In this document: positions 11,625 to 40,834 of the stretch, piece by piece | Layout: the number at the start of each line of letters is the position of its first letter | Numbering within the stretch: the stretch's first letter is position 1 | IMG/VR virus record: IMGVR_UViG_3300033153_009450 | Coordinates: 1 to 61,278 of that record | Length of the DNA stretch: 61,278 nt | Strand: one strand, 5' to 3' | From: a virus | Taxonomy: Duplodnaviria > Caudoviricetes | Program-made: the position numbers and the translations under genes | The notes under the pieces: generated by a model | What the model was told of the DNA's origin: nothing | Database searches by the model: none | What the model saw: only the letters and a program-made list of their open reading frames with translations

Positions 11625-11665
11625 TTAAAGCCATAGCCCCTTCCCGCCTTATGGTGTTGCCGCCT

Positions 11666-12035: not shown

Positions 12036-12266
12036 TTAAGCGTATCCATTGTTTTCCCTTTCAGCTTCTTGCCCGCCGTTTGTGTGGCGGGTCAGCTTCT
12101 CTTCTCTCAATTCCTCTCCACAACCAGGACAATGGGTAATGACATCAAAACAGGTCTCTTTTTCTTCGCAATCGTCGCCGTCATCATGATAAACATTAAC
12201 GAATGCGTGACCATTCCACCTCAGATCAACCCAGATAACGTATCCGCATTGACAGAACTTTCTCAC
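12036..12266 (-). CDS. Hypothetical zinc-ribbon protein
   Basis: CQCG...HCPGCG. Confidence 0.55.
   Translation of the reverse strand: MRKFCQCGYVIWVDLRWNGHAFVNVYHDDGDDCEEKETCFDVITHCPGCGEELREEKLTRHTNGGQEAERENNGYA
12071..12092. repeat. Family C palindrome, representative copy
   Basis: GCCCGCCGTTTGTGTGGCGGGT; also near 576, 15193, 18267, 19764, 19798, 24343, 24367, 24413, 38325, 39330, 55520 and 56232. Confidence 0.85.
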
Positions 12267-12586
12267 TATGCCGGATCCGTGAATAATAAATCCTGCAACC
12301 TATCAATCTCCGCCGCAATCAAAGCCCCGGCAATTTCTAATCTACGGATTCTTTGGTGTTTAGCTCGTTTGTCCCAAATAGGGTCCCACCAATCTGGCCA
12401 GGGATCTATGAAGCGATACACACCCGGCGGCCCGCCGAGGCATTTATAGATATTTGCCGGCGCTGCATAACAACAAGCGCACCAGGCCAGCTCATTATTT
12501 CTAAATATAACATCATGTCCTGCCGTAAAGCCTTCTTCCTCTATCTGCCGCTTCCTCTCAGCAGCGATCAATTCCACTCCAGTCAT
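12266..12586 (-). CDS. Conserved phage hypothetical protein
   Basis: IAAERKRQ...GFTAGHD...AGALIAAEIDRL family pattern. Confidence 0.75.
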   Translation of the reverse strand: MTGVELIAAERKRQIEEEGFTAGHDVIFRNNELAWCACCYAAPANIYKCLGGPPGVYRFIDPWPDWWDPIWDKRAKHQRIRRLEIAGALIAAEIDRLQDLLFTDPA

Positions 12587-12598
12587 ACTAACCCCCTT

Positions 12599-12811
12599 TC
12601 AAAGTTTTCCATCGGGCAAACCGGAAACATAGTTTGCCTTTGTTCGCCAAAGAGCATGGCATGTGCGACAAAACACCCCGGAATAATCGCTGTATGTTTT
12701 CCGGTATCCGTTAAAAGCTGAATAATTGCAGTACCGCATATATACAATCCAGTTCCGTTCATGGACTGGTTTTTTCCTTTCTTCACAATGACAAGCTCCC
12801 GGGCCGCTCAT
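12599..12811 (-). CDS. Hypothetical zinc-binding protein
   Basis: NYSAFNGY...SDYS...CRTCHALWRTKANYV; start overlaps the upstream stop (ATGA). Confidence 0.6.
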   Translation of the reverse strand: MSGPGACHCEERKKPVHERNWIVYMRYCNYSAFNGYRKTYSDYSGVFCRTCHALWRTKANYVSGLPDGKL

Positions 12812-13107
12812 AAACTCACTCCCCCATCCTGTTTAGGCTCAATACCCACTTCCTCAATGAGCCATTTGTCCATACAATCAAGGCAAGTATAATACCGCTC
12901 CCATTCTCCATCCACCAAAGCGGAATCGTATTTTGCCTTTTTTCCAATAGGTATTTCATGTGGTTTGTTGCCGATTAAATCAGCCAAAAAGCAGGGGTGT
13001 GTTTTTCTGACTTTTACTATTTTGAAGGTGTGACAACGGATATCGACATCCCTATCAGAGCCACTAAAAGGGTCATTGTTTAAATACACATCATCAGTGA
13101 ATTTCAT
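12808..13107 (-). CDS. Hypothetical protein
   Basis: KVRKTHPC...CLDC; GGAG RBS. Confidence 0.6.
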   Translation of the reverse strand: MKFTDDVYLNNDPFSGSDRDVDIRCHTFKIVKVRKTHPCFLADLIGNKPHEIPIGKKAKYDSALVDGEWERYYTCLDCMDKWLIEEVGIEPKQDGGVSL

Positions 13108-13142
13108 ATCTCTCCTTCAGCCTTCTACCTTCTACCTTCTTC

Positions 13143-14045
13143 CTACCATCCCAATTCATTCCACACCTTTCCATCAAGCATCCGGCCTGCTACTTTCTTG
13201 CCGACTCTCATCATTTGGATACAGTTGTATGGATAGGCGTAGTCATAGCTTTCACCGTCGATATGCACCCATTTACGTTTAGGAGTACTCCCGGATGGCC
13301 AAACAAAATCGAAATCGTCCGGACAGTACTCTCCCCACTGCTTGAAAAAGAAAGGGACCATCGCTTCTTGGCATTGCTCGCGAATAGACCTCACCCATTC
13401 CGGGTGCATGGGCCGCGCATCTGATCCTGATTCACCACCGACAATTACCCAGTCAATTCCCTCGCCGCCGAATTGAGGATCCGCGCAATAATCAATTATA
13501 CTAATCGGCCCTAAAAGCGGCTCGAAATTAACAAACAGATTCCCTTTAATCTTTAGCAGTTCCTGTATCCGCCATGCATACTTTGCTAATTCGACACTCA
13601 CGCCAAACCATACATTAGGCCCTATGTGCAACCAGTGCTCGATAGATCGGAAAAACTTCCTCATCAGGTCGGGGCGCTTCGTAAGAATAAGGTAAGTGTG
13701 CTGACTGGCAACCGCCATGGCCTCAAAAGCCCGGATCTGAAACTCGTACTGCACAAGCGGATGAAACAGATCATTCCAGACAGAATATGTTTTCGGCTCC
13801 TGACGCGGTGTGACTTTATCCAGGTCTTCCCACATCAAACGGATCTTGCCGGTCCACTTACCATTTGAACCAGTAAGTTCTTTGTGCCTCGCACTAACCT
13901 TCTCATTCGGATTATTCTCCCGCATATGAGATGCAGTTGCAGCCCAGCAATGAGCACACCCCTCGGAAACAGGCGAACATCCCTCGACAAGCGACAACGC
14001 CCTATCCCAGTACAATCCTTTTTCAATCCGCTTAATATCCGTCAT
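13143..14045 (-). CDS. Phage Gp37/Gp68 (DUF5131) radical-SAM-like protein
   Basis: GCSPVSEGCAHCWA, DLFH, LTKRP, EPLLG, WVIVGGESG, PFFFKQWG. Confidence 0.92.
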   Translation of the reverse strand: MTDIKRIEKGLYWDRALSLVEGCSPVSEGCAHCWAATASHMRENNPNEKVSARHKELTGSNGKWTGKIRLMWEDLDKVTPRQEPKTYSVWNDLFHPLVQYEFQIRAFEAMAVASQHTYLILTKRPDLMRKFFRSIEHWLHIGPNVWFGVSVELAKYAWRIQELLKIKGNLFVNFEPLLGPISIIDYCADPQFGGEGIDWVIVGGESGSDARPMHPEWVRSIREQCQEAMVPFFFKQWGEYCPDDFDFVWPSGSTPKRKWVHIDGESYDYAYPYNCIQMMRVGKKVAGRMLDGKVWNELGW

Positions 14046-19826: not shown

Positions 19827-20921
19827 ATGCCCGTCTACCCAAAAAACGGCCTTTACTACTGTGTCTACTACCAGGGCAGCAAGCGCGTCTGGGAACCTTT
19901 CGGTCGCGGATCCGGCGCAAAAGAGGCCGCCGAGGCCAGAGACCTTGAAATAAAGCTCAAGAAAAAGACCGGTCAGATGCGACATGCCCCGGCCGGCCGA
20001 ACCTCTTTCATGGACCTGGCCCGCATGTATACCGATGCCCGAAAGAACGAACTGGCCGATAATACCATGGACGGGATCTTGAGAACCATCACCACCTATG
20101 CCGGACCAATCAGTAAAAAACCGATCAACCTGATCACAATGGACGACTGGCGCAAGATCGAGCAGAAAATGATCCGGAGGAAAATAAAGAACCGGACAAT
20201 CAATACCTACTTCGTATACCTTTCAAACATCCTGGACTGGGCCATGGGTGACGGCCTTATGGAAAATAACCCGTGGACCCGCCGGAAACGCCTCAAGGAG
20301 CGAAATAGATTTATGATAGACCTCTTCACCATCGACGAGTTTAATCGCATCCTGGCCGTATCTGCGCCTCATTTAGCATGGATTTTGGACACGGCCTATC
20401 ATACGGGTGTCCGGCCCGGGCCCACTGAACTATTTTGCATGAAATGGGAGGACGTGGATTGGCACCTAAAGCGAATCCGTATCTATTCGCAAAAGACCGA
20501 TACCTGGCGCTGGCAGTACCCGGACAAAAAATACTTCCGCCGCATGGTATCTAAACACAAACAAATGCAGAAAAAGTATCCCGGCTGCCCCTGGATTTGT
20601 TCGTACAACGGCAGGCAGATCACGAGTGTCAAAAGGGTATGGAAGGATGCTAAGGAAAAGGCAGGCATCAAGCGCCGGATCCGGCTCTACGATATTCGTC
20701 ACTTCTACATCACCTATGCCCTGGCGAACGGCGCAAACATAACCGAGTTAGCGGAAAGGGTAGGGCACGTGAACCCGCGCATGATTGTCAACGTCTATGC
20801 CCACCTTGCAAAGGACATCGCCCGCAACAAACCCTTCAAACTCCCCGAACTGAAAATCCCCGCCAAAACAGTAGATATAAACAGTAGACAAAGAAAGGCC
20901 GTCCCCGAAAAGACGGCCTAA
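19827..20921 (+). CDS. int: Tyrosine integrase
   Basis: HTGVRP, YDIRH, VGH...YAH catalytic pattern; adjacent attP. Confidence 0.93.
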   Translation: MPVYPKNGLYYCVYYQGSKRVWEPFGRGSGAKEAAEARDLEIKLKKKTGQMRHAPAGRTSFMDLARMYTDARKNELADNTMDGILRTITTYAGPISKKPINLITMDDWRKIEQKMIRRKIKNRTINTYFVYLSNILDWAMGDGLMENNPWTRRKRLKERNRFMIDLFTIDEFNRILAVSAPHLAWILDTAYHTGVRPGPTELFCMKWEDVDWHLKRIRIYSQKTDTWRWQYPDKKYFRRMVSKHKQMQKKYPGCPWICSYNGRQITSVKRVWKDAKEKAGIKRRIRLYDIRHFYITYALANGANITELAERVGHVNPRMIVNVYAHLAKDIARNKPFKLPELKIPAKTVDINSRQRKAVPEKTA

Positions 20922-26338: not shown

Positions 26339-29300
26339 TCATGCTGCCTCTTTTTTTCCTTCAGCCTTCAACCTTCTACCTTCTTTAACCATCATCCTCT
26401 TAATCTTTCCGCGTATCCGTTTACGGGCATTCCTGATGACGGCCCGGATCTTCCTGGCCTTCCATTCATCAGATCTCCGGGAATTAATAATCCCTGCGAG
26501 TTTTCTCCGGGCGATGGTGCTCGATTCCTCTAAATATTTATCATACTGCTCTCGGCTCATTTTCTGGTTGACACCGTTTATATTCAAATACCTGCTCGGC
26601 GGTCCCATATTCAGGGTTTCGTTTTTGAGCATCTCGTTTATAACGTCCATTACAGGGTCCGGCCCCTTTTCCGCCGCAATAATCGGGGTCTCAAGTCTTG
26701 GCCCCCATGCCGTATGAGTCGCAGCGCCCATGCTGTGCATGATTGCCGTCAACCCGTCTTCCTCGCCCTGCATATACCGGATAAAATGACCCACCTGGAT
26801 GGGCTGCATATTTACCACCTGGTTAACCACTACCGATGGCAGCCGGTTCAAACCGCCTACCTTTTCCTGAAAAGCGGATTTTTTAATGGTCTTCCCCGTG
26901 GTCACAAACTCCTTGATTCCCGTAAACGGCCTTTCCGCCCAGTCGGACCCGGAAAACGCGGCGGATGCGGCACGGACAAAAGGACTGCCCTTATGTTTCA
27001 CCAACCGGAAAGGATCAATCAGTTTGAGCGGGTCAAAGAAATGTCCGCCCAAAGAAAATGTCTTTCGCTGGCCTTCGGTATCAACGCCTAACATATGGTA
27101 CAGCTTTGTAACGTCGATCTCGGTCCACCTGAGTTTATTCGCCTTGTTTGAAAGGAGCTGCTCTTCCAGGAATTCCTCGGTCTCATCCGACCCATTGAGC
27201 AGGAGCTGGGCGACAATGGTGCTCACGGCAATCCTGAGCATCACACGGCCCCAGAATCGCCTGTATACATCCTCCATAGCCTTTGGACCGGGGACATCGC
27301 CTACGGTTTTGCTGATAAATTTATTTAGCCCGGGCACCATGCCTGATACGGTCCTGAAATTGGATTCAGTCCAATCCGGCGCAAGCAATAACATCCGGGC
27401 CATCTTCTGAAGCGTGGGATTCCTGCCCATTCGTTTCAGATGCAGCCCGCCAAAGTCCGCATTAATCAACCTGGCGACCCGCTCCGCGATCTGATTAGGG
27501 TTGGGTGGCAGCTTGGACCTGCCGGATGTATATTTCTCATTCTCCTTTTGAAGCTCATGGGTGTACTCGACAACAAACGCCTCGGCCTTGAGACCTGCAA
27601 AGTATTTCTTGAACAGGCTGTCCGTGAAACGCTCACGGTAAAAGCGGCCAGCCTCTATTACCTTGCCGGTCTTTTCTAATCCTAAGTAATTTACCAGTTT
27701 TTCAGTCAATCCCGTGGATGCCCTTAATTCACTCTCCGCCCAATCCTGAAGCTCGCCTACCGTAAGCCCGTTCTTGATCCCTAACTCGATTAGGGGATGC
27801 AGATCCTCGATCTTTTTCAAACCGGCCTTAAATGCCTTGACCGGATTTACGTTCTTCCACCCATGATGTACGCCGAATACCCATGACCGCGTACCTGCCA
27901 TATGATGAAAGAAACTGGACAGGAGTATCCAGGTCTTTATGCCCGTATTAAGCCGGAGAAGCTCCTTTGCTACCGGTGTTGTATTAAAGAGCGTATCCGT
28001 GGCCGTCATCTTATTAATCATCTCGGCGATGGGTTTAGGCGCATAAAGCGGTTGTTTTTCAAACATCTTGGACACGTCCTTGGGGGGCCTCCGCTCGATA
28101 CGATCATAATGTCTTTTGTCAGCAAATTCCTCGGCCTCTTCCATGGTATCAAACAGCTTTATGGCCTTTTTCGATTCTTCATTTTTGTAAACCGCAAATT
28201 GCTCCGGTATGCGCTCGGGTGTGGTAGCAAAGAACTTGCGGCCATATGTGTCCACAACAAGGGCCTCTTCATCTCTGAATTCGGATTCAATCTCGGCCTT
28301 ACCCGCCCATCTCCACACAGAGAAACCGGACGCCTTTAGCGGTGCATATCCGGGTTTGGGCTTTGCCGTAAACATGGCATTGCCGGATACATCGACCGTA
28401 GCAACTCCGCGCTGCAAGAAAGCCTTGTTTGACATGATAGTAGCAAGTTCGGTCATATATCGTTCGTAGCTGCTCGTAATCCCCTGGACACGAAGCTCGT
28501 AACCTGCCATCCAGCCGTCTAAGATAGTATCGAAAGTCCTTTGCTTGGCCGCAGTGGTGTAGACCTTGAACCCGTAACCGGGACCGGTACCCCTAAATTC
28601 TTCGGCTTTGCCTTCCGGTAGTTTCCACAAACGCCGTACATAATTGTCCCGGTGTGTCTTAATGATCTTGTGGGCATTGGCTAACGAGAACGCATCTTCA
28701 AACAGATCACCCATATGATCAACAAAGTCATTCTGCTCATCTGTCAGCTTAAACGCCTGGTCTAATATTTTTAACTGGCCCTTGATCTTTAACCGGTCCC
28801 TGGCCGGAATATCCCCGGCTAATTGTTCTTTGGCCCATGCCCTGAATTCATCCGCTTTTTCCAGGTTATCGCCCAGATCCCGGCGTATCGTCATTGCCTT
28901 GTCAAGTTGATCCGATGCAAAAGACCTCTTCAATTCCGGCTTATATGCAAACCCCAGGGTAAGTTTCTTCCTGCTTGCCGGACCCGCCAACCTTTTGACC
29001 TGATCCTGGAGATCCCAGACACTGTTCTGGATCCGGAAAACAGCAAGGTCTTTCATCTCAAATAGCTTGTTCACAAAAGAACGATCGTTCTCAATATCCT
29101 GCGCAACCTCGCGCCCGGTCGGCTGTTTCTGTACGGAATAGTACGCCTGCCCCTCAAAAAGCACCGACTGTTTCATCTCCGATGTAATGTCAACGGAATG
29201 GACGGTCTCAAGATCATCCTTAAAATCGGCCTCGCTCGCTCGTTCTAAATTTTTCGCCATATCCTTTCTAAGCCATTTAGGTCCTTCAGGCGTTCGATAA

Positions 29301-32300
29301 TAAGCCCAATCTCCTACTTCTAATCCAACAGCACCCGCAGCGGGTTCTTTTGTAACAATCTTTTGCTCTCCAACCTTACCACTCCACTGCTTTACATATT
29401 TCCGCATGAACCCGGGGAGCAACTCATCATAGAACGCCCTCATGCCTATACCGCCGATGGAAAGATCCTCACCCTTAAACGTGCCGTAAGGTTCCTTAGA
29501 GGTTATTATCTGTTGTGCAAGGGGTTTGCCGATAACGTCTTTAAGTTCTACTTCTTTTCCTTTTATGGCGGTTGTACCTTTGAGGGGAATATTGGCGCTA
29601 AAAACAGAATTGTTTTTTTTCTTTGCTGAAACCTCTACCTCGCCTGCCGCAGTATTCTTAAACCATCTAATCTCATCAACATTCTGCCTTAATGCATCTT
29701 CATACCGTGCGATCTGGTGTTTGCCCTTAGTCCAGGCTACGGTATCAAACCCATTTTCCGCTGCATACCTGAGCATCCGCTTCATACACACTTCATGCCA
29801 GTTTTCAAGAAAAGGAGCTGGGGGGACACCAACATCAGTAGCATACATTCTGTTATGTAACCCCCTTGCTTCTTCTTCCAACATCCTTAGCCTGTCAGCA
29901 TCTTTATCTTTTGTGGCACTGATTATATCTCTCTCTATTTGTTTTAATCTATCAATTGCGTCTGTTTTTTCTTTTGGTGTCAATGGTTTAAGCTGACCCT
30001 TAAACCCCTTCTCCTTAGCTTCCTGTAACCAATCCGACTGAATCTCTTCTATAAACAGAACCCGCTTACCTTCGGCATCGGTACGCTCGTTAAACCGGAC
30101 ATGAGCTAAGACATTAGGTTCATCCCAGTGGGTAGCGCGGTAAGTATCTGGTGAAATTATTTCATCTTTACTCTTTCTTCTGTGAAGTAAACTGGCGATA
30201 TGTTTTTCGTCAACATTTAGATCGTTGAACCTTTTCCCATATTGTTCTTGTGCTGCATCATCTAAGCTAAAATCTTGTTTGACGGATATTTCCGGCAACA
30301 TAAACAGCAATTCCCGGTATCCTTCGCCGCCGGGGAGGGTATATGTTTCAAATTTCGGGGAACCTGCGCCTTCTTTTAGCTGGTCAATATGTTGTTCATA
30401 AAGACCTTCAATATCAACACCTGTTAATTTCAATAACTCTTCACTTGCATTATCATTTCCTCCGCCGCTGTCCTCATATTCATTAAGCAATTCATCAACT
30501 CTGCGTTTCCAAAAAGCAGATACAGAGATACCAATATCTCTATCTGGATATTCTTCAACAATCATCTCTTCGTCAATCATACCTCCTGGCTCTGCTTCTC
30601 CTATGATTCCCCGGAATTCTTCAATAGCATCTGTCAACGCCGCGTCTTGAATGTCAGCGGTAATGTCTGTATGCCTTACACTCTTCTCAATTTCCCTAAT
30701 CTCAATCTGATTCGCCTTCAGAAAATCAAGAAAGGCATCCTTATCAATTTTGCCTTCCTTCTGATTCTCTTTAAGCCAATCCTCAACACCCATCCATTTC
30801 ATTTCTGCCGGTTTTACCTGTTTCCGTTGCAGCCATTTAGTTAATGACTGTACCTTGCGGGGCATATCCGTTGCCGTCTCAACGGCACGCATAAGCTGTG
30901 AATAAAAGGGAGGGGCGGTTGTCGCAAACATCTGGGCTTGCTCCGCAGCGCCCGGCCCGGTTTTGAGATCAAAGATTCTCCCCGTTTCAATATCCCGCGC
31001 AACTCCCCGCGCAGTCCGGTGAAACAGGTTCACAAAACGTTCAACCCAATCCCTGATCTTTTTCAAGATCCGGCCAACAGGGCCTTTAACATCCTTGTTT
31101 AACTGATCAGCGATATAGCTTGCCCTGTCCTCCGGTCCGCCTATGTCCTCCTTATTTCTTGTAGTAAACTTGCCGTTATTGACCAATTGCTTGATCCGGG
31201 TCTTCAACGCTGCAATATCCCTGTTTGTCAAAATACCGGCATCCTCAAAGAAATGAACCGACTCATGGCTCAGGGTCCATTTATTCCCAATATCCTCCTG
31301 AATCTCGATTACGCCGCTCTTATACTTTCCGGCAATAAACTCGCCGGTCTCCTTCTGACGACCATAGGTTAATTTAAAAGACGCGCTATCCTCGGAAATC
31401 TGTTGAACGGTCTTTATTGTAACGCCATGCCCGGCCTTTGTGCGCACCCATATATCACCATCCGGCGAGATCCCCACATGCTGACCCTTGAACACGGCCC
31501 GCACATCGTCGAGGGATATGGCATCCGTAACAAATCCCCTGGTTTTCTGCCGTTTCGCGGCTTCTGGCAAAACCCCGAACGATTCATGCAATTGCTTGAT
31601 ACGAGCAGGGAGATCTTTCAGGTCTTTGACGGTTACGGAAGAATTCGTTACATTATCCGTAAAGGCATACGGCCTTCCCGCAAGGCTCTCCCATCGCCCG
31701 TCATATGTGAGATTATGTTTTTTGGTAAGCGCTGCAATGGCAGGAGTAACGGAATACTGCTCCGGTTTCTCCATGTCCGCCTTAGCCTTGGCGGCGGATT
31801 CGCCCGTTACCCATGGAGATTCGCCATATTCCTCGACAGATTGTTCAGAAAGCCCTAAGACCTCTTCCTCACCATGGCCTTCTAATGCTTGCCTTGCATT
31901 ATCTATAGCCTCTTTTTTTGAAAGACCTTGCCTTACGATAATACCGCTTCGGGCATCTGAAACAATCCATGTTCCCATGTCTTTATCTTGATGGATAAAT
32001 GTCTCAAGCCAGGGTACAATTTCAACCCCTTTCGCATCAAGCAGTGCTTCAAACTCTTTATTATTATTTAATTTATAATACGCTCTGCCCGCCGCAGGCG
32101 CTATTTCCGGCGCAGCGCCCATCAAAGTTGCATTGATCTCTCTTGATTTTTTCCTTAATTCCTCTAACTTGTCTATGTCTTTGAAGGTTTCTTTGTTAAC
32201 GGATTCGCTCTCAAGGCTGGATACCTCGGTATTGAGTTTCTTGATCAGGTCTTCATATCTCTTCAACTCACCATCTAATCCGTCAATCTCCCTGTTCAAC

Positions 32301-35300
32301 TGGCTGATATAAGTGGATATGGCGCTTTCTTCGTTCGCATAAGAGCTGACAGGCTTTACAGGAATCATATTCCCGTGTTCACCAACAAATAATGTCTGTG
32401 TATTTTGATATATATTATCAAGATACAGCGTGAATCCCCGGTACCCGCCAACAGCTAATGTTCGCTCTCTGAATTTCTTCTTGCCCTCGATCTTAGCCAT
32501 CCCGTATAGCTCGGCAAGGGCCTGGCCTGCCTCTTTCTTGTCCGTGATGGTTTTTTCTTCAATGTCGTATTCAGGAATTCCGTGGATTATAAAGCTGAAT
32601 TCCTTGTCGTCAGGTTTTGGCTGCCTGGTCTCAATATCCTTCTTTATATCCTCTATCCTTCTTCCCACCGATGTTATTCGGGTCTTTCTCGATGCAATCC
32701 CGGATTGTAAATCGAACCTCTGATCCATCCATCCACGATGCATGGCCTCCATTTTTATCAGGTCGGCATCAACCCTGACCTTTTCCAGAATCAGCGGGTT
32801 GCTGGACGCAATAGCCTTTACAGTGGCATAATCCAGAACGGCCTTGCCGATATCCTCCATCTCATCGACACCGCCCTTCATGGCCTGCACAATGAATTTT
32901 GCCTTGTTCTCTAATATCTGCCAGCGATACGCATCGAACGTGCCCCGTGTGACGTACCGGATAATATGAACTTCATCGTTCAGATTGTCGGGCCTGATAG
33001 CCCTGCCGTCTCTCTGTTCCACATCGGAAGGACGCCATGGTGCATCAAGATGATGAATGGCAATCAGTTTTCTTTGCACATTCATACCTTCTCCCATCTT
33101 GCCGGTGCTTCCCATCAAGATTCGCACCTGCCCTCTATTCATTTTTAAAAATAGTGCCGCCTTTTTCGCATCCGTATTGGCATCATGGATAAAGACGATC
33201 TCCTTCTCCGGTATGCCTCTATCTATGAGTTTTTGCCTTACATCATGATACACGTTGAATTCGTCTTTTTTGGGAATCGAAAAATCGCAGAAAATAAGCT
33301 GGGTGAGCTTGTCTTCGGAAGTCTTTTTATAAATATCAACAGCCCGGTTGATCATTAGATTGACCTTACTGCCGGGATTATCAGGTAGGGTCGGCTCGAT
33401 AAGCCGCATATCAAGGGCCGCCTTTACCCCATCCGTTGTTACGACTAAGGCATTATCTTCTCTGGGGTCAACCTGTCCACTGCGTATCGCATCCATGCGC
33501 CCGTCTAATTCCTGGATATACTCTTTCTGTTCATCCGATGGTTCCGCCCGGTTGATATCAGGTTCCCCGCCGACCATCTTGGGGACTTTCAGAAAGGGAA
33601 TATCTTCAATATGCACAATATCCGCGAACTCCCGGAACAGGGTGGATAGCTGGCCCATATTAATGAAATTCCTGAATCTGGTATGCATCCTGAAACCTGA
33701 TCCGGTAGGCGTTACCTCCGGCTCTTCCGCAACATCCCCGAAAGTAGCGGCCCATGCATCGAAATTATGGATCTGCAGATCTTTCAATACATCCTGGGCC
33801 AGATACCTCTGTATGGTAAACATCTCGCCCATGGAGTTTGAAATAGGAGTGCCGGTTGCAAAGATAACACCCCTGCCATTATTAAGGCGCTGGACATACT
33901 GTGCCTTTAGAAATAAGTCCATGGTCTTGTCCGCGCCCTGCATCTGTACCCCGGCAACACGGGTCATGCGGGTTGCGGCCCACAGGTTCTTGAACTTGTG
34001 GGATTCATCCACAAACATATAGTCGATGCCTAATTCCTCGAATGTTACGGTCTTGTCCCTCTCACCTTTTTTAAGCACCGTAGCCAGGCGGACTTCCAGC
34101 CGTCTTTTTGACTTTTCAAGCTCCTTGACTGTCTTGGTCTTGCGCCTGCCGCGATCATAAGCCGGGAGACCAGCCTCTTCTTCTATAACAGCGGCCTCTA
34201 ATTCCTGGATCTGCGCCCGGATAAAATCGGCCTGGGCCTTCTTGCTCATGGGTAGCTTGATCATATTTGGGTGGGTGATTATGACTGCATCCCAGTCGCC
34301 CGTGGTTATCCGGGCCATAAACTCGGCCCTCTGGGCGGGTGTGAGGCTCTTTTCAGTAGGGGCAAGGAGCTTGGCGCCGGGATAAAAACGCATGAATTCG
34401 CTCTGCCACTGCATAATCAAATGCTTTGGCACGATAAACAGAGGCTTTTTCGATAATCCTAACCGCTTCAGCTCCATTGCCCCCGTGATCATAGAGAGCG
34501 TCTTACCCGATCCAACCACATGGCCTAACATGGTATTCCCGCCGTGTATAATCCGCCACACGGCATCTTTTTGATTAGGTCTCAGGCTGGCCCACGCAGC
34601 CATGCCTGGCAAACGATCAGGAAGATGGCCTCCGTCATATTTCCGGTTGCGCACACTGTTAAAATTACGGTTATAGATTTCAATCAGATTCCGTTGTCTT
34701 TCGATATCCTCAAAGATCCATTTCTCAAAATGTTCTTTTATCTCTTTCTGCTTGACCTGCGCATTCACGGTGGCGGTCTGATCAACATGGGATTTGCCCT
34801 CGCTGTCGGTATACGTAATAACCGTGGCCTTTAGATTGAGCGCATCCCCGATCAGGCGGATTGCATCCGCTCCGTGAACACCCCATCTTTGCTCTCTCAA
34901 CATATTGTCAGAGCCGGACCATCTATCAAATTCCGTTACCCATGTGGCCGTCTCCGGGATATATTTTACCTTGTGCCCCCGGGCGCTTATGAGTTCGCTC
35001 AGGTACTCTTCGATATAATTGTTAGGAATCCAGCCCATACCCAACCGTGCCTTAATCCTGGATGGCGGGATATCCTCGGGTTGGGCCTTTTCCAGCGCCT
35101 CTATGTTTTCCTTATATTTACTGTCTATCTCCGCTGCTGCCCTGGCCGCCTCTAACTTGGCCCTTACATTGCCGGAGAGATATTCGTCCGCAGTTACCCG
35201 CTTCTCGCCTTCGGGATCTAAATAAACCATCCCTTTGAGTTCTTTTTCCAGCGATTCAACGCTTTGCCCGGATATACGGGCCATATGCTCGAAATCCAGC

Positions 35301-38300
35301 CCACCTCGCTCAAACATCGAGACGACAAGGGCATCCTGGGCTGTTTCAACCTTCTCGACCGGTGTGAACCGGGCCATAGTCGGCTTTCTGAATATATCGG
35401 CCTTCTCGGCTGTTTTTTCTTCCGGGTCGTAAACTTCTAATGAAAGCAACAGGGGAAGATCAGGATCATCTTCTACTGACTTCATGTTATATACATTATG
35501 GATATATCCGTAATTTTTGACAAAACGGTCGTAAACCTGGTTGAGTTTTTTCAGGTCGGATTGTTCTAAGTCTGTTTTGCCTTCAAGCTGGTTGTGGAGT
35601 GTCTGGCGGGTAATGTCCCGCAACCGGACAAGCCCCTTTATACGACCCAATTCCTTCTTTGTGCCGGGGACCGGGATAGCGTCGTCACCCTTTTTCTGGT
35701 AGATCTCCCCGTCCTGCTCAAAATAGGCGAAATTTTTGACGGTATCCGGCGCTGGCATAAGGTCTTCTGTTTTCGGGGCCTCTGTAGCCTCATGCACGGG
35801 TTTTATATACATCTCCGCAGGTATGCCCGTATCAATCGCACCGGCAAGGGCCTCGCCTAAATCCCGTCCGTCAGACGCCAGAGCCGCCCGTCCCGGATGC
35901 AGCTTATCGTCAACAAGTTTTCCAAGCATCATGTGCGGATATTTGGCAAAATACTCATTAATAAGGTATTTCTTATATTCCTTTGTCTCTACCCATTTAG
36001 CCCCCCTGGGCTTCTTGCCTGCCTCTAACTTGCGCAAAAAGATGATATCCGCCGTAACCTCGGTATTTGCTATCTTCTTGAACGCATCGCCCGGTAAGCG
36101 GATCGCGGCGACCAGTTCCGCACGCTCGGAGATGTATTCCCGGATCCGGGAATCCTTTTTATTCATCATACCCGCAGAAGTAATAAAGGTAATCAGGCCG
36201 CCGGGCCGTACCTTATCAATGGATTTTGCAAAGAAATAATCATGAATGAAAAATTTCAGGTGGTTATAGTCGGGATCAAAGACCTTGTAATCCCCGAAAG
36301 GAACATTGGAAATGGCAAGATCAAAGAAATCATTTGGCAGTTTGGTGTCTTCATATCCCTGCACGCGGATATCCGCTTCCGGGTAAAGCAGCTTTGCGAT
36401 CCTGCCGGATATTGAATCAAGCTCGATGCCGACAATTTTAGAATTCCATTCTGCCGGTACAAGCCCTTCAAACATACCCGTACCGCCCATGGCTGGATCT
36501 AAAAGTCGTCCGCCGTCAAATCCCATGCGTTTTAAGGCATCGTATATATTTGAAACAATTAAGGGCGAGGTATAGTGTGCATTAGGTGTGCTGGCCCTTG
36601 CGGCCTCGTATTCCTCTTCGGTGAGTAGTTCTTCTAATTTTTCAGCACGCCCGGTCCATGGTGTATCTTTATAGGAATAGGTCTTAAACGCCTCGGGCAT
36701 ACCGCCCCAGCCCACATACTTGACCAGAACAGCCTGGTCTTCAGGTGTGGCCTGCCGTTTTTCTTCCTCAATTTTTTTTAGGAGTTTTATGGCAGCGATA
36801 TTGCGGTCGTATTTCGCGACCTTGCCGCCGGATTCGATATCGTCTCGGTCGGTTATTCGGTAGTTTCGCCCAGCTTCGGGACCTCTTCCTCGCTCGGCAG
36901 GAGGATGTGCTGGGGCAGTACGATCTCTTCGGCCTCGTAGATCTTCAGCCCCTTCAGCACGAGGTTGCGCACTTCCTCGCCCGCCCTCTCCCCGGACTCC
37001 TTCAGGAACTCGTTCAGCTCTCCCTTCTCCTGCAATTCCTGAAACATCGTCGGGCGGAATTCCTTCAAGTGGTCGTGTGCCCTCAGTGCGTACCCCCTCA
37101 ACTCTTTCAGGTTTGCGTCCACCTTCTTCACCCCCTATCTCTTCTCTGACGAATTTTTCAAAATAGGGCCTACCCCTAATTCCAAGATTGTCTACGGCAA
37201 TGGAAACAAATTCTTCAAGGCTTTTTCCCGCAGCAACGATCTCGTCCCATGCCTCTTTGAGTAAGACCCTGACCTGTTGCCATGTTGTATCGTTCTCATC
37301 TATTTCCTCAAACGATATTACGCCTTCATCACCTAATAACTTATTGATCTCTTTAAACTTGGAAACTGCGTTCGCAACATGCTCCCCGGCCTCTTTCAGT
37401 TTCTCCTTTGCCGGTGGTTTCGCACCCTGCCTGGCAGCCTGTTCCTTTTTCTTTTCTGCCAGCCTGCGATCATATGCTGCTAACAAATCTTCAGGGGTTG
37501 CTTTTAATTTAACCTCTTTTTTCTCCTTTGTCAAGGCCCCTGTTTCTTCCTTGTCCGCCGGAGCTTCTCTGTCCGCCTTAGCCTTGGCGGCGGCGGAAGC
37601 GGCGGCGGATTCAACAACTTCCGGCGCCTTACCTGTCTCGGCCTCCACTTCTTTGTCCGATGCCTGTATCTTAGCACCGCTGTCGGTCTTGACAAGATAA
37701 CCGACCATTCCACCGGCCTTTGTCCCGTAGATCGTTGTAAACTTAATAGAAATTACCTCGACAACCTCACCATGCTGCTTGGTCCCGGTCTTAAGTACAA
37801 CCCGATCACCCTTTGCGAACTTGCTTGGCTTTTCTACCTCTTCTTCTACCCCAGCTTCTTTGACTTCGCCTTTTTTTTCTTCCAGTACTCCACCTGGTTC
37901 AGCCGGTGATACGCCGTGCCCTTCGCCGGGTTCTTCCGGTCGCCTTTCTCCTGGTACGGGCCGCCCAGGTGCCTTCTCTTCCCGTCCGGGCCTTTCTTCT
38001 CGCTCAGGACGTGATACCCGTCCTTTCTCTTCACTAACATGTTCCTTCTCCTTAATGGTATATGGCAGGCTTTCTTTTTCAAGAATTTCTATAACCTTAT
38101 CGTAAGGGATACCAACGTCTTCCCCTTCTTCATTAAAGAATACATTCTCGCCGAAAACCTCAACAGCGGCATCCTGCTCATCGCCGGAAAAATCATCAGG
38201 CAGCCATGCCCTGCCATCATCCCGGATCTCAACATAACTCCTGCCGCCCCGGGCATTCTCGAAATCAATCCCTGCTACGTCTTTGGCAAGCAGTGTCTTA

Positions 38301-40834
38301 CCGGTCAATACAAGCGGCTTTTTACCCGCCGGTTCTGTGGCGGGCCGTCCCGTCATCGCCGCTACGGCTGGACTTGGCTTTTTTGGCTTTCGTAATGTAG
38401 TTACTACCAAATGAGTTTCTTGTTCTACCTTGCCTTCAATACCTGGGATTTCAATGGCTTCAATGTCATGTCCTTCTCTGAATTTCTCGACCTTAAAGCC
38501 TTCTTCCTCCGCAAATTGTTTTATTTCCCCGGGTGTCCAATAGCTGACCCATTTATCGCCTGTCTTGGTCCGGGTATAGAGAAACAATTTAGCCTGTCCG
38601 CCGGGCCTTAAGACTCGATTTATCTCTCTGAATGTAAACCTTATGGGTGTGGAATGAAGAGCTGCCACGGAATAAACAGCATCGAATGATTCGTCCTCAT
38701 ATTGAAGATTTTCCGCATCTCCTACTTCAAATGCAATATTCTTTACGCCCCTTGCGGCTTTCTTTGCCCTCTCAATAGCCTTGTCAACGACGTCGATCCC
38801 TGTAACATCGTGGCCTTTCTTTGCCATAAAAATACTATCACGACCATTGCCGGTGCCTATTTCTAATATATCGGCATTTTTTAAATCTTCACGGTCGAGG
38901 TCTTCAATTATTTCGTCGGCAAGAGGGGAATGCTCTTTTTCTTCGACATAATGAGGTTCTTCCACTTCCGCATATTCCTTTTGCCATTCATCGGAAGTCA
39001 TCTTTTTATTGTATGCTTCAATGCGCTTCTTCTCTTCACTGGATCTTTCAGAAAATGGAATCACCTCTTTTGCTTCCGGCGGAGGTTGAACCTTCTTACC
39101 CGTCATCGCCGCAATGCCCTGGCCTTTCTTCCCTTCTACCTTCAGCCTTTCACCTTCCACCTTCTTAGTGGTGGGAACCCCCTCCGTCATTGCAGTTCGG
39201 TCAGGCTGCTCGGGAGGGGGCTTTGGGGTTGGCTCTGGGATTTCTTGAATCTTTTTTTCTTCGGCTAATTCCTCAGCCGCTATCCTTTGCTCTTCTTCCT
39301 CATGGGCCAACTCGTCCGCCATAGCTTTACCCGCCGTCAGTGTGGTGGGTTCGGCGGCGGCGGATTCTTCGGCTGCAATGGCCTCCATGTCCGCCATAGC
39401 CTCGGCGGCGGCGGATTCTTCAACCCTAATTCTCTCAGCTTCAATCTTAGCGGCCTCTTCCTCGGCAATAATCTCACCCATTATGCCTTCAGCTTTGAGC
39501 CTCTTTTCCTCTTCAGCCTTCAGCCTTCTACCTTCTGCCTTCTCTTCTAATACCGATTCTTCACCGATATCCTTAATCATGCCCTGGTTATCGGAAATTC
39601 CACCCTCGTCTTCCTTCAGCCTTCTACCTTCTACCTTTTCTTTTTCTACCTTCTCCCTGAATTTCCTTGCTACCTCGACAAGATCCTCGCCCATCGCTAT
39701 GGATTCTTTTTTAATGACCGCGATGGTAGCGTTCATCTTCCATACACGGGCGATATCCGCGTCAACATCCTTTAAGGTTTTGTAGACCTCATTAACGGCA
39801 GATAGCCGGATCTTTTTATCTTCCTGCGTATCTGCTAATTTCTTCGCAATATCCCTGCGCTGCAAACTGGTTATGCTTGATCCAACCCCGAAGAAGATAA
39901 TACTTGCAACCGCAGTAGGGCCTAATGCGCTTTGCGCTGCTTCCCAGAATCTAACATCACCCATGCCGATATCATGGGCAAGCTCGGCCTGGACACCGGC
40001 GGTCGCTGTCTCGGTAGATACCTCGGCAAACATAATTCCACCGGCCTTTTTTAAATGCTGCCTGAATCCGGTACGAAATATTTGTTTGAGCCCGGCTTTT
40101 AAAGCGGATTTTGCAGGTGTTGTTAAAGGCTTTGCAATTCCAACGGTCAGACCTTCTAAGATATTCGAGACAAACTCAAAGCCGCCTTCCGCCATACCGG
40201 ACAGCATGGCATTGGTTTGTGCCTCACTTTTCGGGATACCTTTCTTTTCTGCCTCTTCAATAAAACTGTCATATTCCGCCAATCCGAACTGGACCCCGCC
40301 GCTTAATGCATAGCCGATCAATGCGCCTATTGCGGTACCCACACCCGGACCGAATAGTGTCCCGATTCCAGCGCCTGCTACGGCACCGGGAGCACCGGCT
40401 AAGAGTGATTGAACCGCTGCTTCAACACCTTCTGTAACCCACCGGCGCCATCCTTCTTTTGATTGCGGTGTTGGTTGGACAAATGGTGTCTCTTCTCTGA
40501 ATCTCTCAATGCTCTCTATGCCTGATGTTGCGGCTTCCTCTATCCAGTCTATCCCGCCTTCAGGGTCCAGAGTACGCAGCGCTCTTAATCCGGTTTCACC
40601 GGCTGAAAGTACGCCACGGGAGATCAAAGAACCTGCTTCCGCAAAAAAACCCCGCTCCGCAGGCGGGTCCCTTATCTCACTCGGTTCCTCTCCCAATAAC
40701 TCCGCAACAGTGAAATATTTTCGACCTGCCCGCCGGACGGCAGGCGGGTCTGAAACAGGAGGTCTTTTTACCGGAATAAACGGCGAGGGAGTTTCTTCTC
40801 CTAATAGTTCTCTGGCTGTATAGAATGAAGCCAT
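26339..40834 (-). CDS. Giant polyvalent/internal virion protein: class I SAM methyltransferase, DarB-like N6-MTase plus SNF2 helicase, HExxH and EEIQSD domains
   Basis: LEIGTGNG; LDPAMGGTG, NVPF, VGSGKT, DESH, ATGTP, QRDGR; HESVH; follows the ejection-protein genes. Confidence 0.9.
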   Translation of the reverse strand: MASFYTARELLGEETPSPFIPVKRPPVSDPPAVRRAGRKYFTVAELLGEEPSEIRDPPAERGFFAEAGSLISRGVLSAGETGLRALRTLDPEGGIDWIEEAATSGIESIERFREETPFVQPTPQSKEGWRRWVTEGVEAAVQSLLAGAPGAVAGAGIGTLFGPGVGTAIGALIGYALSGGVQFGLAEYDSFIEEAEKKGIPKSEAQTNAMLSGMAEGGFEFVSNILEGLTVGIAKPLTTPAKSALKAGLKQIFRTGFRQHLKKAGGIMFAEVSTETATAGVQAELAHDIGMGDVRFWEAAQSALGPTAVASIIFFGVGSSITSLQRRDIAKKLADTQEDKKIRLSAVNEVYKTLKDVDADIARVWKMNATIAVIKKESIAMGEDLVEVARKFREKVEKEKVEGRRLKEDEGGISDNQGMIKDIGEESVLEEKAEGRRLKAEEEKRLKAEGIMGEIIAEEEAAKIEAERIRVEESAAAEAMADMEAIAAEESAAAEPTTLTAGKAMADELAHEEEEQRIAAEELAEEKKIQEIPEPTPKPPPEQPDRTAMTEGVPTTKKVEGERLKVEGKKGQGIAAMTGKKVQPPPEAKEVIPFSERSSEEKKRIEAYNKKMTSDEWQKEYAEVEEPHYVEEKEHSPLADEIIEDLDREDLKNADILEIGTGNGRDSIFMAKKGHDVTGIDVVDKAIERAKKAARGVKNIAFEVGDAENLQYEDESFDAVYSVAALHSTPIRFTFREINRVLRPGGQAKLFLYTRTKTGDKWVSYWTPGEIKQFAEEEGFKVEKFREGHDIEAIEIPGIEGKVEQETHLVVTTLRKPKKPSPAVAAMTGRPATEPAGKKPLVLTGKTLLAKDVAGIDFENARGGRSYVEIRDDGRAWLPDDFSGDEQDAAVEVFGENVFFNEEGEDVGIPYDKVIEILEKESLPYTIKEKEHVSEEKGRVSRPEREERPGREEKAPGRPVPGERRPEEPGEGHGVSPAEPGGVLEEKKGEVKEAGVEEEVEKPSKFAKGDRVVLKTGTKQHGEVVEVISIKFTTIYGTKAGGMVGYLVKTDSGAKIQASDKEVEAETGKAPEVVESAAASAAAKAKADREAPADKEETGALTKEKKEVKLKATPEDLLAAYDRRLAEKKKEQAARQGAKPPAKEKLKEAGEHVANAVSKFKEINKLLGDEGVISFEEIDENDTTWQQVRVLLKEAWDEIVAAGKSLEEFVSIAVDNLGIRGRPYFEKFVREEIGGEEGGRKPERVEGVRTEGTRPLEGIPPDDVSGIAGEGRAERVPEGVRGEGGRGSAQPRAEGAEDLRGRRDRTAPAHPPAERGRGPEAGRNYRITDRDDIESGGKVAKYDRNIAAIKLLKKIEEEKRQATPEDQAVLVKYVGWGGMPEAFKTYSYKDTPWTGRAEKLEELLTEEEYEAARASTPNAHYTSPLIVSNIYDALKRMGFDGGRLLDPAMGGTGMFEGLVPAEWNSKIVGIELDSISGRIAKLLYPEADIRVQGYEDTKLPNDFFDLAISNVPFGDYKVFDPDYNHLKFFIHDYFFAKSIDKVRPGGLITFITSAGMMNKKDSRIREYISERAELVAAIRLPGDAFKKIANTEVTADIIFLRKLEAGKKPRGAKWVETKEYKKYLINEYFAKYPHMMLGKLVDDKLHPGRAALASDGRDLGEALAGAIDTGIPAEMYIKPVHEATEAPKTEDLMPAPDTVKNFAYFEQDGEIYQKKGDDAIPVPGTKKELGRIKGLVRLRDITRQTLHNQLEGKTDLEQSDLKKLNQVYDRFVKNYGYIHNVYNMKSVEDDPDLPLLLSLEVYDPEEKTAEKADIFRKPTMARFTPVEKVETAQDALVVSMFERGGLDFEHMARISGQSVESLEKELKGMVYLDPEGEKRVTADEYLSGNVRAKLEAARAAAEIDSKYKENIEALEKAQPEDIPPSRIKARLGMGWIPNNYIEEYLSELISARGHKVKYIPETATWVTEFDRWSGSDNMLREQRWGVHGADAIRLIGDALNLKATVITYTDSEGKSHVDQTATVNAQVKQKEIKEHFEKWIFEDIERQRNLIEIYNRNFNSVRNRKYDGGHLPDRLPGMAAWASLRPNQKDAVWRIIHGGNTMLGHVVGSGKTLSMITGAMELKRLGLSKKPLFIVPKHLIMQWQSEFMRFYPGAKLLAPTEKSLTPAQRAEFMARITTGDWDAVIITHPNMIKLPMSKKAQADFIRAQIQELEAAVIEEEAGLPAYDRGRRKTKTVKELEKSKRRLEVRLATVLKKGERDKTVTFEELGIDYMFVDESHKFKNLWAATRMTRVAGVQMQGADKTMDLFLKAQYVQRLNNGRGVIFATGTPISNSMGEMFTIQRYLAQDVLKDLQIHNFDAWAATFGDVAEEPEVTPTGSGFRMHTRFRNFINMGQLSTLFREFADIVHIEDIPFLKVPKMVGGEPDINRAEPSDEQKEYIQELDGRMDAIRSGQVDPREDNALVVTTDGVKAALDMRLIEPTLPDNPGSKVNLMINRAVDIYKKTSEDKLTQLIFCDFSIPKKDEFNVYHDVRQKLIDRGIPEKEIVFIHDANTDAKKAALFLKMNRGQVRILMGSTGKMGEGMNVQRKLIAIHHLDAPWRPSDVEQRDGRAIRPDNLNDEVHIIRYVTRGTFDAYRWQILENKAKFIVQAMKGGVDEMEDIGKAVLDYATVKAIASSNPLILEKVRVDADLIKMEAMHRGWMDQRFDLQSGIASRKTRITSVGRRIEDIKKDIETRQPKPDDKEFSFIIHGIPEYDIEEKTITDKKEAGQALAELYGMAKIEGKKKFRERTLAVGGYRGFTLYLDNIYQNTQTLFVGEHGNMIPVKPVSSYANEESAISTYISQLNREIDGLDGELKRYEDLIKKLNTEVSSLESESVNKETFKDIDKLEELRKKSREINATLMGAAPEIAPAAGRAYYKLNNNKEFEALLDAKGVEIVPWLETFIHQDKDMGTWIVSDARSGIIVRQGLSKKEAIDNARQALEGHGEEEVLGLSEQSVEEYGESPWVTGESAAKAKADMEKPEQYSVTPAIAALTKKHNLTYDGRWESLAGRPYAFTDNVTNSSVTVKDLKDLPARIKQLHESFGVLPEAAKRQKTRGFVTDAISLDDVRAVFKGQHVGISPDGDIWVRTKAGHGVTIKTVQQISEDSASFKLTYGRQKETGEFIAGKYKSGVIEIQEDIGNKWTLSHESVHFFEDAGILTNRDIAALKTRIKQLVNNGKFTTRNKEDIGGPEDRASYIADQLNKDVKGPVGRILKKIRDWVERFVNLFHRTARGVARDIETGRIFDLKTGPGAAEQAQMFATTAPPFYSQLMRAVETATDMPRKVQSLTKWLQRKQVKPAEMKWMGVEDWLKENQKEGKIDKDAFLDFLKANQIEIREIEKSVRHTDITADIQDAALTDAIEEFRGIIGEAEPGGMIDEEMIVEEYPDRDIGISVSAFWKRRVDELLNEYEDSGGGNDNASEELLKLTGVDIEGLYEQHIDQLKEGAGSPKFETYTLPGGEGYRELLFMLPEISVKQDFSLDDAAQEQYGKRFNDLNVDEKHIASLLHRRKSKDEIISPDTYRATHWDEPNVLAHVRFNERTDAEGKRVLFIEEIQSDWLQEAKEKGFKGQLKPLTPKEKTDAIDRLKQIERDIISATKDKDADRLRMLEEEARGLHNRMYATDVGVPPAPFLENWHEVCMKRMLRYAAENGFDTVAWTKGKHQIARYEDALRQNVDEIRWFKNTAAGEVEVSAKKKNNSVFSANIPLKGTTAIKGKEVELKDVIGKPLAQQIITSKEPYGTFKGEDLSIGGIGMRAFYDELLPGFMRKYVKQWSGKVGEQKIVTKEPAAGAVGLEVGDWAYYRTPEGPKWLRKDMAKNLERASEADFKDDLETVHSVDITSEMKQSVLFEGQAYYSVQKQPTGREVAQDIENDRSFVNKLFEMKDLAVFRIQNSVWDLQDQVKRLAGPASRKKLTLGFAYKPELKRSFASDQLDKAMTIRRDLGDNLEKADEFRAWAKEQLAGDIPARDRLKIKGQLKILDQAFKLTDEQNDFVDHMGDLFEDAFSLANAHKIIKTHRDNYVRRLWKLPEGKAEEFRGTGPGYGFKVYTTAAKQRTFDTILDGWMAGYELRVQGITSSYERYMTELATIMSNKAFLQRGVATVDVSGNAMFTAKPKPGYAPLKASGFSVWRWAGKAEIESEFRDEEALVVDTYGRKFFATTPERIPEQFAVYKNEESKKAIKLFDTMEEAEEFADKRHYDRIERRPPKDVSKMFEKQPLYAPKPIAEMINKMTATDTLFNTTPVAKELLRLNTGIKTWILLSSFFHHMAGTRSWVFGVHHGWKNVNPVKAFKAGLKKIEDLHPLIELGIKNGLTVGELQDWAESELRASTGLTEKLVNYLGLEKTGKVIEAGRFYRERFTDSLFKKYFAGLKAEAFVVEYTHELQKENEKYTSGRSKLPPNPNQIAERVARLINADFGGLHLKRMGRNPTLQKMARMLLLAPDWTESNFRTVSGMVPGLNKFISKTVGDVPGPKAMEDVYRRFWGRVMLRIAVSTIVAQLLLNGSDETEEFLEEQLLSNKANKLRWTEIDVTKLYHMLGVDTEGQRKTFSLGGHFFDPLKLIDPFRLVKHKGSPFVRAASAAFSGSDWAERPFTGIKEFVTTGKTIKKSAFQEKVGGLNRLPSVVVNQVVNMQPIQVGHFIRYMQGEEDGLTAIMHSMGAATHTAWGPRLETPIIAAEKGPDPVMDVINEMLKNETLNMGPPSRYLNINGVNQKMSREQYDKYLEESSTIARRKLAGIINSRRSDEWKARKIRAVIRNARKRIRGKIKRMMVKEGRRLKAEGKKEAA
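36853..37131 (-). CDS. TnpV-like small protein nested in the +1 frame of the giant ORF
   Basis: YALRAHDHLKEFRPTMFQELQEKGELNEFL...YEAEEIVL; the giant frame here is low-complexity. Confidence 0.65.
   Translation of the reverse strand: MKKVDANLKELRGYALRAHDHLKEFRPTMFQELQEKGELNEFLKESGERAGEEVRNLVLKGLKIYEAEEIVLPQHILLPSEEEVPKLGETTE
37846..38040 (-). CDS. Small basic phage protein nested in the +1 frame of the giant ORF
   Basis: AAGGAGAAGGAAC-ATG; MLVKRKDGYHVLSEK...HLGGPY...AYHRLNQVEYWK. Confidence 0.65.
   Translation of the reverse strand: MLVKRKDGYHVLSEKKGPDGKRRHLGGPYQEKGDRKNPAKGTAYHRLNQVEYWKKKKAKSKKLG

Follow-up and report, generated by a model that had tools for sequence, protein, structure and literature searches.

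Whether a small open reading frame (ORF) that lies entirely within a much larger gene, on the same strand, can be a gene in its own right is the question raised by a locus of the caudoviricete virus record IMGVR_UViG_3300033153_009450 (IMG/VR), the 61,278 nucleotides (nt) of which were analysed as one stretch and are referred to here as the window. The larger gene is a single ORF for a polyvalent protein of 4831 residues with DNA methyltransferase and helicase modules. The small ORF, of 92 codons, is found in its +1 frame at positions 36853..37131 of the minus strand, where a preliminary description of the locus had placed it. It appears that the small ORF is a nested, independently translated gene of the TnpV family and the region a true dual-coding one, a reading to which a probability of about 0.85 is given on the grounds of sequence comparison.

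In the window, the +1 frame is closed upstream by TAG 37137-37135, and two GTG codons follow, at 37131 and 37122. The nested start is probably GTG 37122, which yields an ORF of 89 codons, or else GTG 37131. A Shine-Dalgarno (SD)-like AGGGGGTG precedes GTG 37122 by 6 nt, and it would pair with the anti-SD sequence and may work as a ribosome-binding site. At the other end, the nested stop TAA 36855-36853 lies, as had been noticed, inside the I and T codons of NYRIT, the residues with which the methyltransferase module opens (the N codon is 36865-36863). Over the nested bases the giant frame reads as a stretch rich in G, R, E and P (residues 1231-1323). Across 34 loci this linker is composed of 20% G, 12% A, 10% P, 10% R and 9% E, and hydrophobic residues make up 11% of it vs 29% of the nested frame; its composition predicts a flexible or disordered segment. 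The preliminary description had also likened the giant frame here to the text that an off-frame reading usually gives. Its low complexity was borne out, while the likeness needs correction: the linkers of database giants carry the family-wide motifs PLEG[VI]P.E.V.G ('LEGVSPEDV.G') and ..ERRGR.., which are the -1-frame shadow of HWKE-h-P..Y and LPSEE, the two best-conserved motifs of the nested protein. The codon correspondence between the two sets of motifs was read directly from the window sequence.

The openness of the nested frame alone is not beyond chance, because the coding strand is low in T here (14%, the 4th percentile of the giant gene) and other long runs are open in the same gene (80, 80 and 73 codons in +1, and 97 in +2). 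The translations of these other long out-of-frame runs are junk. The evidence that carries the dual-coding reading is comparative. The locus set comprised 174 loci, i.e., the window and 173 fetched ones, of which 13 viral loci were collected first and then 160 by means of the conserved methyltransferase N-terminus. In 168 of the 174, 450 nt or more of sequence precede the methyltransferase start, and the three-frame translations of these loci were searched with a profile of the nested family. A match (independent E-value < 1e-3) no more than 900 nt ahead of that start was obtained in 102 of the 168 loci, and it lies in the +1 frame in 101 cases, in frame 0 in one and in +2 in none. The nested ORF of the window scores 112 bits against the profile of its own subfamily, also in the +1 frame, and for 53 of the 101 +1 matches the nested stop and the methyltransferase start are at most 45 nt apart. 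The locus set contains duplicates, and 67 nested ORFs are non-redundant. Among the first 13 loci, five distinct ones (L001, L002, L006/L007, L008 and L013) keep the +1 frame open over the linker and encode the same helical protein; their nested ATG stands 6-8 nt behind GGAGG or GGAG, and their +2 frame is full of stops.

Both frames are kept free of stops across these loci. No internal stop occurs in the nested cores of the 67 non-redundant loci, and the giant frame is without a stop over the nested core in 65 of them, where 3.5 would be expected; the third frame is open in none of the 67 (1.3 expected). Both expectations were obtained by synonymous resampling of the nested codons with the codon usage of each locus. 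The two exceptions are L170, in which the small gene stands alone, and L110, which has one stop. Openness of the giant frame is seen in low-GC Clostridia and GC-rich genomes alike. The dual-coding locus that had been proposed is thereby upheld.

The two frames differ in what selection seems to retain. Between pairs with 85-97% nucleotide identity (20 pairs), the differences at nested codon positions 1, 2 and 3 are 0.059/0.029/0.150; they are 0.224/0.198/0.370 at 70-85% identity (23 pairs) and 0.405/0.312/0.513 at 55-70% identity (113 pairs). This pattern follows the nested phase, so that in the giant frame the first position is the most variable and the third the least. The adjoining methyltransferase region, used as a control, has the normal pattern for frame 0 (0.389/0.300/0.643). 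An OLGenie-style estimate of the ratio of nonsynonymous to synonymous substitution (dN/dS), with 21 phylogenetically independent pairs from 77 sequences, puts the nested frame at 0.283 (bootstrap 0.21-0.36) and the giant frame at 1.43 (1.22-1.84), a difference of about 5-fold; which frame would show purifying selection had been posed as a check, and it is the nested one. Likewise, the BLOSUM62 score per site in a nested-frame alignment is 1.26 for the nested and 0.27 for the giant frame, with the nested frame higher in 555 of 561 pairs. When the giant frame is aligned instead, the scores are 0.75 and 0.47, and the nested frame is higher in 389 of the 561 pairs. As far as substitution patterns can tell, the nested frame is under purifying selection that is separable from that on the host frame.

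Start signals are retained as well. In 53 of the 67 non-redundant nested ORFs, a start codon stands behind a GGAG/GAGG core at -16 to -4, in comparison with about 17% expected (2.9 candidate starts per ORF and a background of 6.6%, i.e., 321 of 4844), and the chosen start is ATG in 56 of the 67. A +1-frame stop is found within 10 codons upstream of the chosen start in 31 of the 67 loci, and one codon upstream of it in the window.

With regard to the identity of the nested protein, the window peptide matches the TnpV family PF14198 with E 7.1e-5 and 23.2 bits (residues 9-60 on model positions 21-72 of 111; Pfam). This sub-threshold match alone proves little, because a plainly spurious one of similar strength, to A1_Propeptide (E 1.3e-4), is found beside it, and a word-index homologue search with the peptide returned no match. 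On the other hand, exhaustive phmmer against 1.84 billion representative proteins gave 228 relatives at E<=1e-3, of which 9 reach E<=1e-10; almost all of the relatives have 70-150 residues, and they share an early motif (A..HWKE-h-RPKMY..L...G-L) and a late one (EA-E-IV...YILLPSEED-P-LGE). Nested relatives in the same position reach higher scores against PF14198, from 38.6 bits in L002 up to 94 bits in Clostridia. The nested +1 ORF of low-GC Clostridia encodes a canonical TnpV of ~125 residues (7 of 7 match PF14198, best E 4.3e-29). The window subfamily aligns with the canonical nested TnpV in hhalign (probability 96.5%, E 7.9e-10, 73 columns) with a deletion of ~20 residues in the middle, and 18 of its 28 members match PF14198 at E<=1e-3. 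Judged by its profile, the window peptide is a short-form relative of TnpV despite its sub-threshold Pfam score, because the Clostridial nested copies are canonical and the two profiles match; the TnpV likeness first suggested for it thus gains firm ground.

The fold was predicted by AlphaFold2 from a 28-row family alignment with a predicted local distance difference test score of 83.2 and a predicted template modelling score of 0.69. The model has helices at residues 14-25, 27-36, 39-59 and 64-75; its acidic tail is less ordered. In the Protein Data Bank (PDB), a fold search with this model gave nothing at E<=1e-3 (best 2apl, E 3.2, TMq 0.54), and a sequence search with the canonical TnpV profile gave chance-level MRE11 rows alone (E ~0.2). 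The single match in the viral structure library BFVD was a 1093-residue piece, Q8W6J4_2 (E 7.3e-4, TMq 0.76), which is probably orf33 of Sinorhizobium phage PBC5. The nearest clusters in the ESM Atlas consist of 'hypothetical proteins' of 95-100 residues (0.90-0.91), and one cluster at 0.86 carries the name TnpV on 11% of its members; these serve as leads only.

Briefly, the proposed scheme would run as follows. Ribosomes on the giant message would read the 279-base stretch in frame 0 as a flexible low-complexity linker between the upstream domains and the N12 DNA-methyltransferase/SNF2-helicase module, the sequence of which would be free to drift while its openness would be obligatory. Frame 0 connects real domains, and in short-form genes it connects an N-terminal QLDLF/QLSLF to the methyltransferase; because of these links it must be translated across the region. 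Comparative openness and composition agree with the role of a linker ending at the module that had been proposed for this frame. Separate initiation at an internal SD sequence and start codon (in the window, AGGGGGTG-N6-GTG 37122, or GTG 37131) would give, in the +1 frame, a separate four-helix short-form TnpV protein of ~10 kDa with the conserved acidic tail LPSEE-x-P-x-LGE. Most likely, the small gene is the older of the two and the linker frame a younger reading across it, because stand-alone TnpV exists and the linker frame is disordered and without amino-acid constraint. The presence of stand-alone TnpV genes in other mobile elements also makes it plausible that the gene was captured, as had been put forward.

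Several points weigh against the dual-coding reading. The nested ORF is of unexceptional length, given that other out-of-frame runs in the gene stay open for 80-97 codons. The window copy starts with GTG, not ATG, and its peptide misses the gathering score of PF14198 (23.2 vs 27 bits). A Verrucomicrobia-type lineage ('MTTLTQYGRM') is without an SD core before its ATG. A search of sequencing runs listed no RNA run that holds the stretch; the runs listed were two of DNA type with 5% of the sampled words each. The prevalence of 61% is biased, because the loci were picked by similarity to a query whose alignment came from carriers of the nested gene. The dN/dS values come from related sequences and rest on the 21 independent pairs, with few SS sites (28). 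In addition, the TnpV-like part is in frame with a neighbour in PBC5 (with the upstream half) and in L172 (with the methyltransferase), and these two records may mean that a covalently attached form exists in some elements.

The loci that depart from the usual arrangement are as follows. In the giant gene of PBC5 (L177/L178, record 23745-28975), which is annotated as two coding sequences (CDSs), the upstream CDS (orf33) continues in its own frame through the TnpV-like domain as far as the stop of that domain, and the methyltransferase frame overlaps it by ~580 nt. Phage Atu_ph08, a close relative of PBC5, has ordinary nesting inside one annotated CDS, and the PBC5 split therefore looks like an indel or sequencing error, or else a natural split. 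L172, from a metagenome-assembled genome (MAG) of Bryobacterales, is the only locus with the TnpV-like domain, ~360 nt upstream of the methyltransferase start, in frame with the methyltransferase, as its N-terminal domain; the usual linker reading is found in +2 and ends just before the junction. Either the assembly is wrong here by 1 nt or the fusion is real, and the fusions of PBC5 and L172 may both be indels or sequencing errors. L170, from a MAG of Anaerolineales, has a stand-alone gene of the nested family at 740-1090, directly ahead of a separate methyltransferase gene; the other frame there contains 5 stops, and the N-terminus of the methyltransferase resembles a cysteine-rich zinc ribbon. 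It may represent the unfused state.

Among the other explanations, a programmed +1 ribosomal frameshift would append the TnpV-like segment to the upstream giant part, so that the product is cut short at the nested stop. One mRNA would then yield both products, PBC5 orf33 has a form of this kind, and the BFVD model of Q8W6J4_2, probably the PBC5 protein, holds the same fold. The nested ORF, however, has its own SD core and start in 53 of 67 loci, well above expectation and mostly with ATG, and the +1 stops upstream lie so close to the start in 31 of 67 that almost no room is left for a shift site. No conserved slippery motif was seen, though no systematic search was made, and Atu_ph08 has ordinary nesting in a single CDS. 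A frameshift is thus quite unlikely.

Another explanation assumes three separate genes (the upstream part, the tnpV-like gene and the methyltransferase-helicase gene), the open giant frame being a by-product of low T. The 14% T of the coding strand and the fact that three frames are open over this stretch in the window speak for it, and so do the stand-alone gene of L170 and the two CDSs of PBC5. Against it, the giant frame is stop-free in 65 of 67 loci, Clostridial and GC-rich alike, with the third frame open in none. Because the upstream part has no stop of its own, ribosomes must continue into the linker, and the short-form genes keep the frame-0 QLDLF upstream of the overlap. Furthermore, gp69 of phage JC1, a homologue of 4515 residues, was detected by mass spectrometry in purified virions with 51 unique peptides, counted over the protein as a whole (PMC9144972). 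Three separate genes are very unlikely in view of these points.

It is just as improbable that the nested frame is a decaying tnpV relic, or owes its conservation to some nucleotide- or RNA-level constraint, and is no longer translated. The window copy is ~20 residues shorter than canonical TnpV and begins with GTG, and the run search listed no RNA run, as a relic would lead one to expect. A relic would, on the other hand, have gathered stops, and none is present in the 67 cores of a family that spans several phyla and element types; the nested dN/dS of 0.28, the codon-phase periodicity, the maintained SD and ATG and the confident fold prediction point the same way. A chance ORF with a spurious weak Pfam match, as its ordinary length, the A1_Propeptide match and the empty word-index search might suggest, was rejected as a practically negligible explanation in the light of the phmmer homologues (9 at E<=1e-10), the +1 position in 101 of 102 matches, the 65 of 67 open giant frames, the dN/dS of 0.283 and the comparative results as a whole.

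Beyond dual coding itself, a tentative proposal, given somewhat less than an even chance, concerns its origin. A tnpV gene between an upstream gene and a methyltransferase-helicase gene would have been read across in its -1 frame, which fused the neighbours into one polyvalent protein, and phages, plasmids and integrated elements of several bacterial phyla would have kept the overlap since the small protein is an obligatory partner of the methyltransferase-helicase module on the same message. If this is true, neighbouring genes have been fused through a second frame of the gene between them, which is classical overprinting in reverse, and a sizeable share of TnpV genes is invisible to current annotation. 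A partnership in which the small protein works with the methyltransferase-helicase module from the same mRNA, e.g., as an accessory subunit, regulator or assembly factor, is suggested by its fixed position before the module in long and short genes and by the in-frame fusions of PBC5 and L172, and is regarded as rather unlikely. Complex prediction for the nested protein and the first 640 residues of the methyltransferase module gave 0.01 against a mark of 0.32, a value that is uninformative on binding either way.

The nested family spans several bacterial phyla, and its carriers are phages, plasmids and chromosomes. Stand-alone TnpV genes, with no surrounding giant gene, appear in the annotation of Heyndrickxia, Vescimonas, Salmonella and Klebsiella plasmids and of streptococcal phages. 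For plasmids, 20 of the 30 matches listed (43 records matched) lie under one large CDS named 'SNF2-related', 'helicase-related' or similar, a count limited by the incomplete gene tables of PLSDB. Matches to the window-type peptide occur in 8 phage records (5 phages), and every one of them lies under the giant CDS. In the RefSeq record of phage LASTA, the giant CDS 215..13516 is the sole annotation over the nested ORF, and RefSeq PBC5 and many plasmid records likewise annotate the giant CDS alone. In Pseudomonas phage Itty13 (L185, MW460249.1 1073-8461), two 'hypothetical protein' CDSs are annotated opposite the methyltransferase-helicase match, and its giant gene seems to have been mis-annotated on the wrong strand.

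The frame-0 motif QLDLF/QLSLF, which we take to resemble the beta-sliding-clamp binding motif QL[SD]LF, opens short-form methyltransferase-helicase genes with the nested ORF in 23 of 53 loci, counted over loci whose frame-0 ORF opens at most 210 codons upstream. The carriers include L028, L062, L100, L124, L135 and L149, and the motif lies ~115-185 codons ahead of the methyltransferase start. In proteobacterial plasmid forms that lack the nested ORF, QLSFDF or QFSFDF takes its place.

TnpV was reportedly first named on the Clostridium transposon Tn4451, and we know of no established function for it. The nested family has in common with TnpV the motifs G-x-YG-x-M/A..HWKE-h-P..Y..L...G-L and AEEIVL, and in the giant genes of Clostridia canonical TnpV of ~125 residues is likewise nested in +1 at this position. 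It differs in that the window protein lacks ~20 middle residues and ends in the acidic LPSEE-x-P-x-LGE tail, and in that the classic genes stand alone whereas that of the window is embedded in another gene. Embedded same-strand overlapping genes occur in phages, such as Rz1 of phage lambda, which lies inside Rz in the +1 frame. As in Rz/Rz1, a complete small gene with its own putative ribosome-binding site is carried on the same strand in the +1 frame of a larger one. In contrast to Rz/Rz1, the small gene here is probably the older; it shares its bases with a linker devoid of features (dN/dS ~1.4) in a polyvalent host protein of 3000-5000 residues, and phages, plasmids and chromosomes from several phyla have retained this arrangement. 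Embedded +1 phage genes are therefore of a kind already known, and the widespread, ancient and unannotated nesting of TnpV is what is new.

To our knowledge, few long genes embedded on the same strand are conserved across phyla outside small viruses, and such cases are contested. The case of the nested TnpV rests on dozens of independent lineages, in which annotation pipelines miss the nested gene. A family from antibiotic-resistance transposons and conjugative elements would gain a large hidden branch, and puzzling conserved motifs in the low-complexity linkers of N12 methyltransferase giants would be explained as the shadow of another protein. The methyltransferase-helicase module as a fixed genetic partner offers a lead on the function of TnpV. 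The ~5-fold contrast in dN/dS makes the locus a good case for how two frames share one sequence, and cultured phages exist for experiments.

In titles and abstracts on TnpV, polyvalent/DarB proteins and overlapping genes (subscription journals and supplements being outside this scope), no TnpV nested in such giants was mentioned. 'TnpV' did not occur in a term search of the JC1 paper (PMC9144972), nor did 'TnpV', 'overlapping', 'linker' or 'frameshift' in one of the polyvalent-protein paper (PMC5512222).

The giant gene takes up 24% of the phage genome (Table 1). In its protein, matches to Methyltransf_11 (residues 657-747), SNF2/ResIII (2083-2284) and Helicase_C (2534-2614) were found by Pfam, and among 7853 long homologues some are named 'N12 class adenine-specific DNA methylase' in their source. 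DNA methyltransferase and helicase modules thus occur together in one very large phage protein. The combination of a methyltransferase, an N12 DNA methyltransferase and an SNF2 helicase in one phage polypeptide is shared with polyvalent proteins of phages and conjugative elements (Iyer et al. 2017, PMC5512222). The methyltransferase-helicase part matches 135 phage records, many of them ~60 kb podophages whose giant gene is annotated as DarB-like; the label on cultured-phage relatives is 'DarB-like antirestriction'. The likeness to P1 DarB does not extend over the full length: darB covers 13% of the 1380-residue methyltransferase-helicase query and is aligned to residues 97-282, the methyltransferase core only (31% identity, E 2e-18). 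By analogy with JC1 gp69 and DarB, the window protein may be packaged, injected or active against restriction.

Table 1. Features of the window and nested +1 ORFs of related phages (positions in nt of the window; empty cells, no value given).
Feature	Record	Positions	Strand	Basis or score
Putative nested short-form TnpV-family gene, +1 frame of giant gene, GTG start, 92 codons	window	36853..37131	-	ORF list, profile match, model
Shine-Dalgarno-like AGGGGGTG, 6 nt upstream of GTG 37122	window	37129..37136	-	read from sequence
Giant gene, 4831 residues, single ORF, polyvalent DarB-like	window	26339..40834	-	ORF list, translation, Pfam
Class I S-adenosylmethionine-dependent methyltransferase domain, ~residues 652-750	window	38585..38881	-	Pfam Methyltransf_11/25/31; NCBIfam methyltransferase matches sub-cut-off
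Giant-frame linker, residues 1231-1323, overprinted by nested gene	window	36866..37144	-	translation, composition
N12-class DNA methyltransferase module start (NYRIT...), first 640 residues used	window	34946..36865	-	family alignments
SNF2/ResIII helicase core and Helicase_C, residues 2083-2614	window	32993..34588	-	Pfam
Integrase	window	19827..20921	+	
DNA methyltransferase, separate from giant gene	window	9389..10867	-	
Primase	window	3152..4945	-	
Nested +1 ORF	LASTA			profile 76 bits
Nested +1 ORF	VvAW1			profile 71 bits
Nested +1 ORF	Itty13			profile 75 bits
Nested +1 ORF	Atu_ph08			profile 81 bits
Nested +1 ORF	PBC5			profile 79 bits
Nested +1 ORF	JC1			profile 13.6 bits (weak)
Nested +1 ORF	BcepIL02			profile 13.1 bits (weak)
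Nested +1 ORF	Gervaise			no profile match

The window is a complete virus record with direct terminal repeats. Its other genes include those for an integrase, a primase, a DNA methyltransferase, a terminase and a head-tail adaptor, and the phage is probably temperate because an integrase is encoded.

Some further open runs were observed in and around the giant gene. A second low-complexity stretch (RPEREERPGREEKAPGRPVPGERRPEEPGEG...) is present at 37534..38088 of the minus strand (giant residues ~915-1100), where +1 runs of 80 and 73 codons are open; their translations are basic junk without a protein-like pattern. On the opposite strand, an ORF of 134 residues is open over the nested stretch at 36745..37149 (+), which is probably a by-product of the low T of the coding strand.

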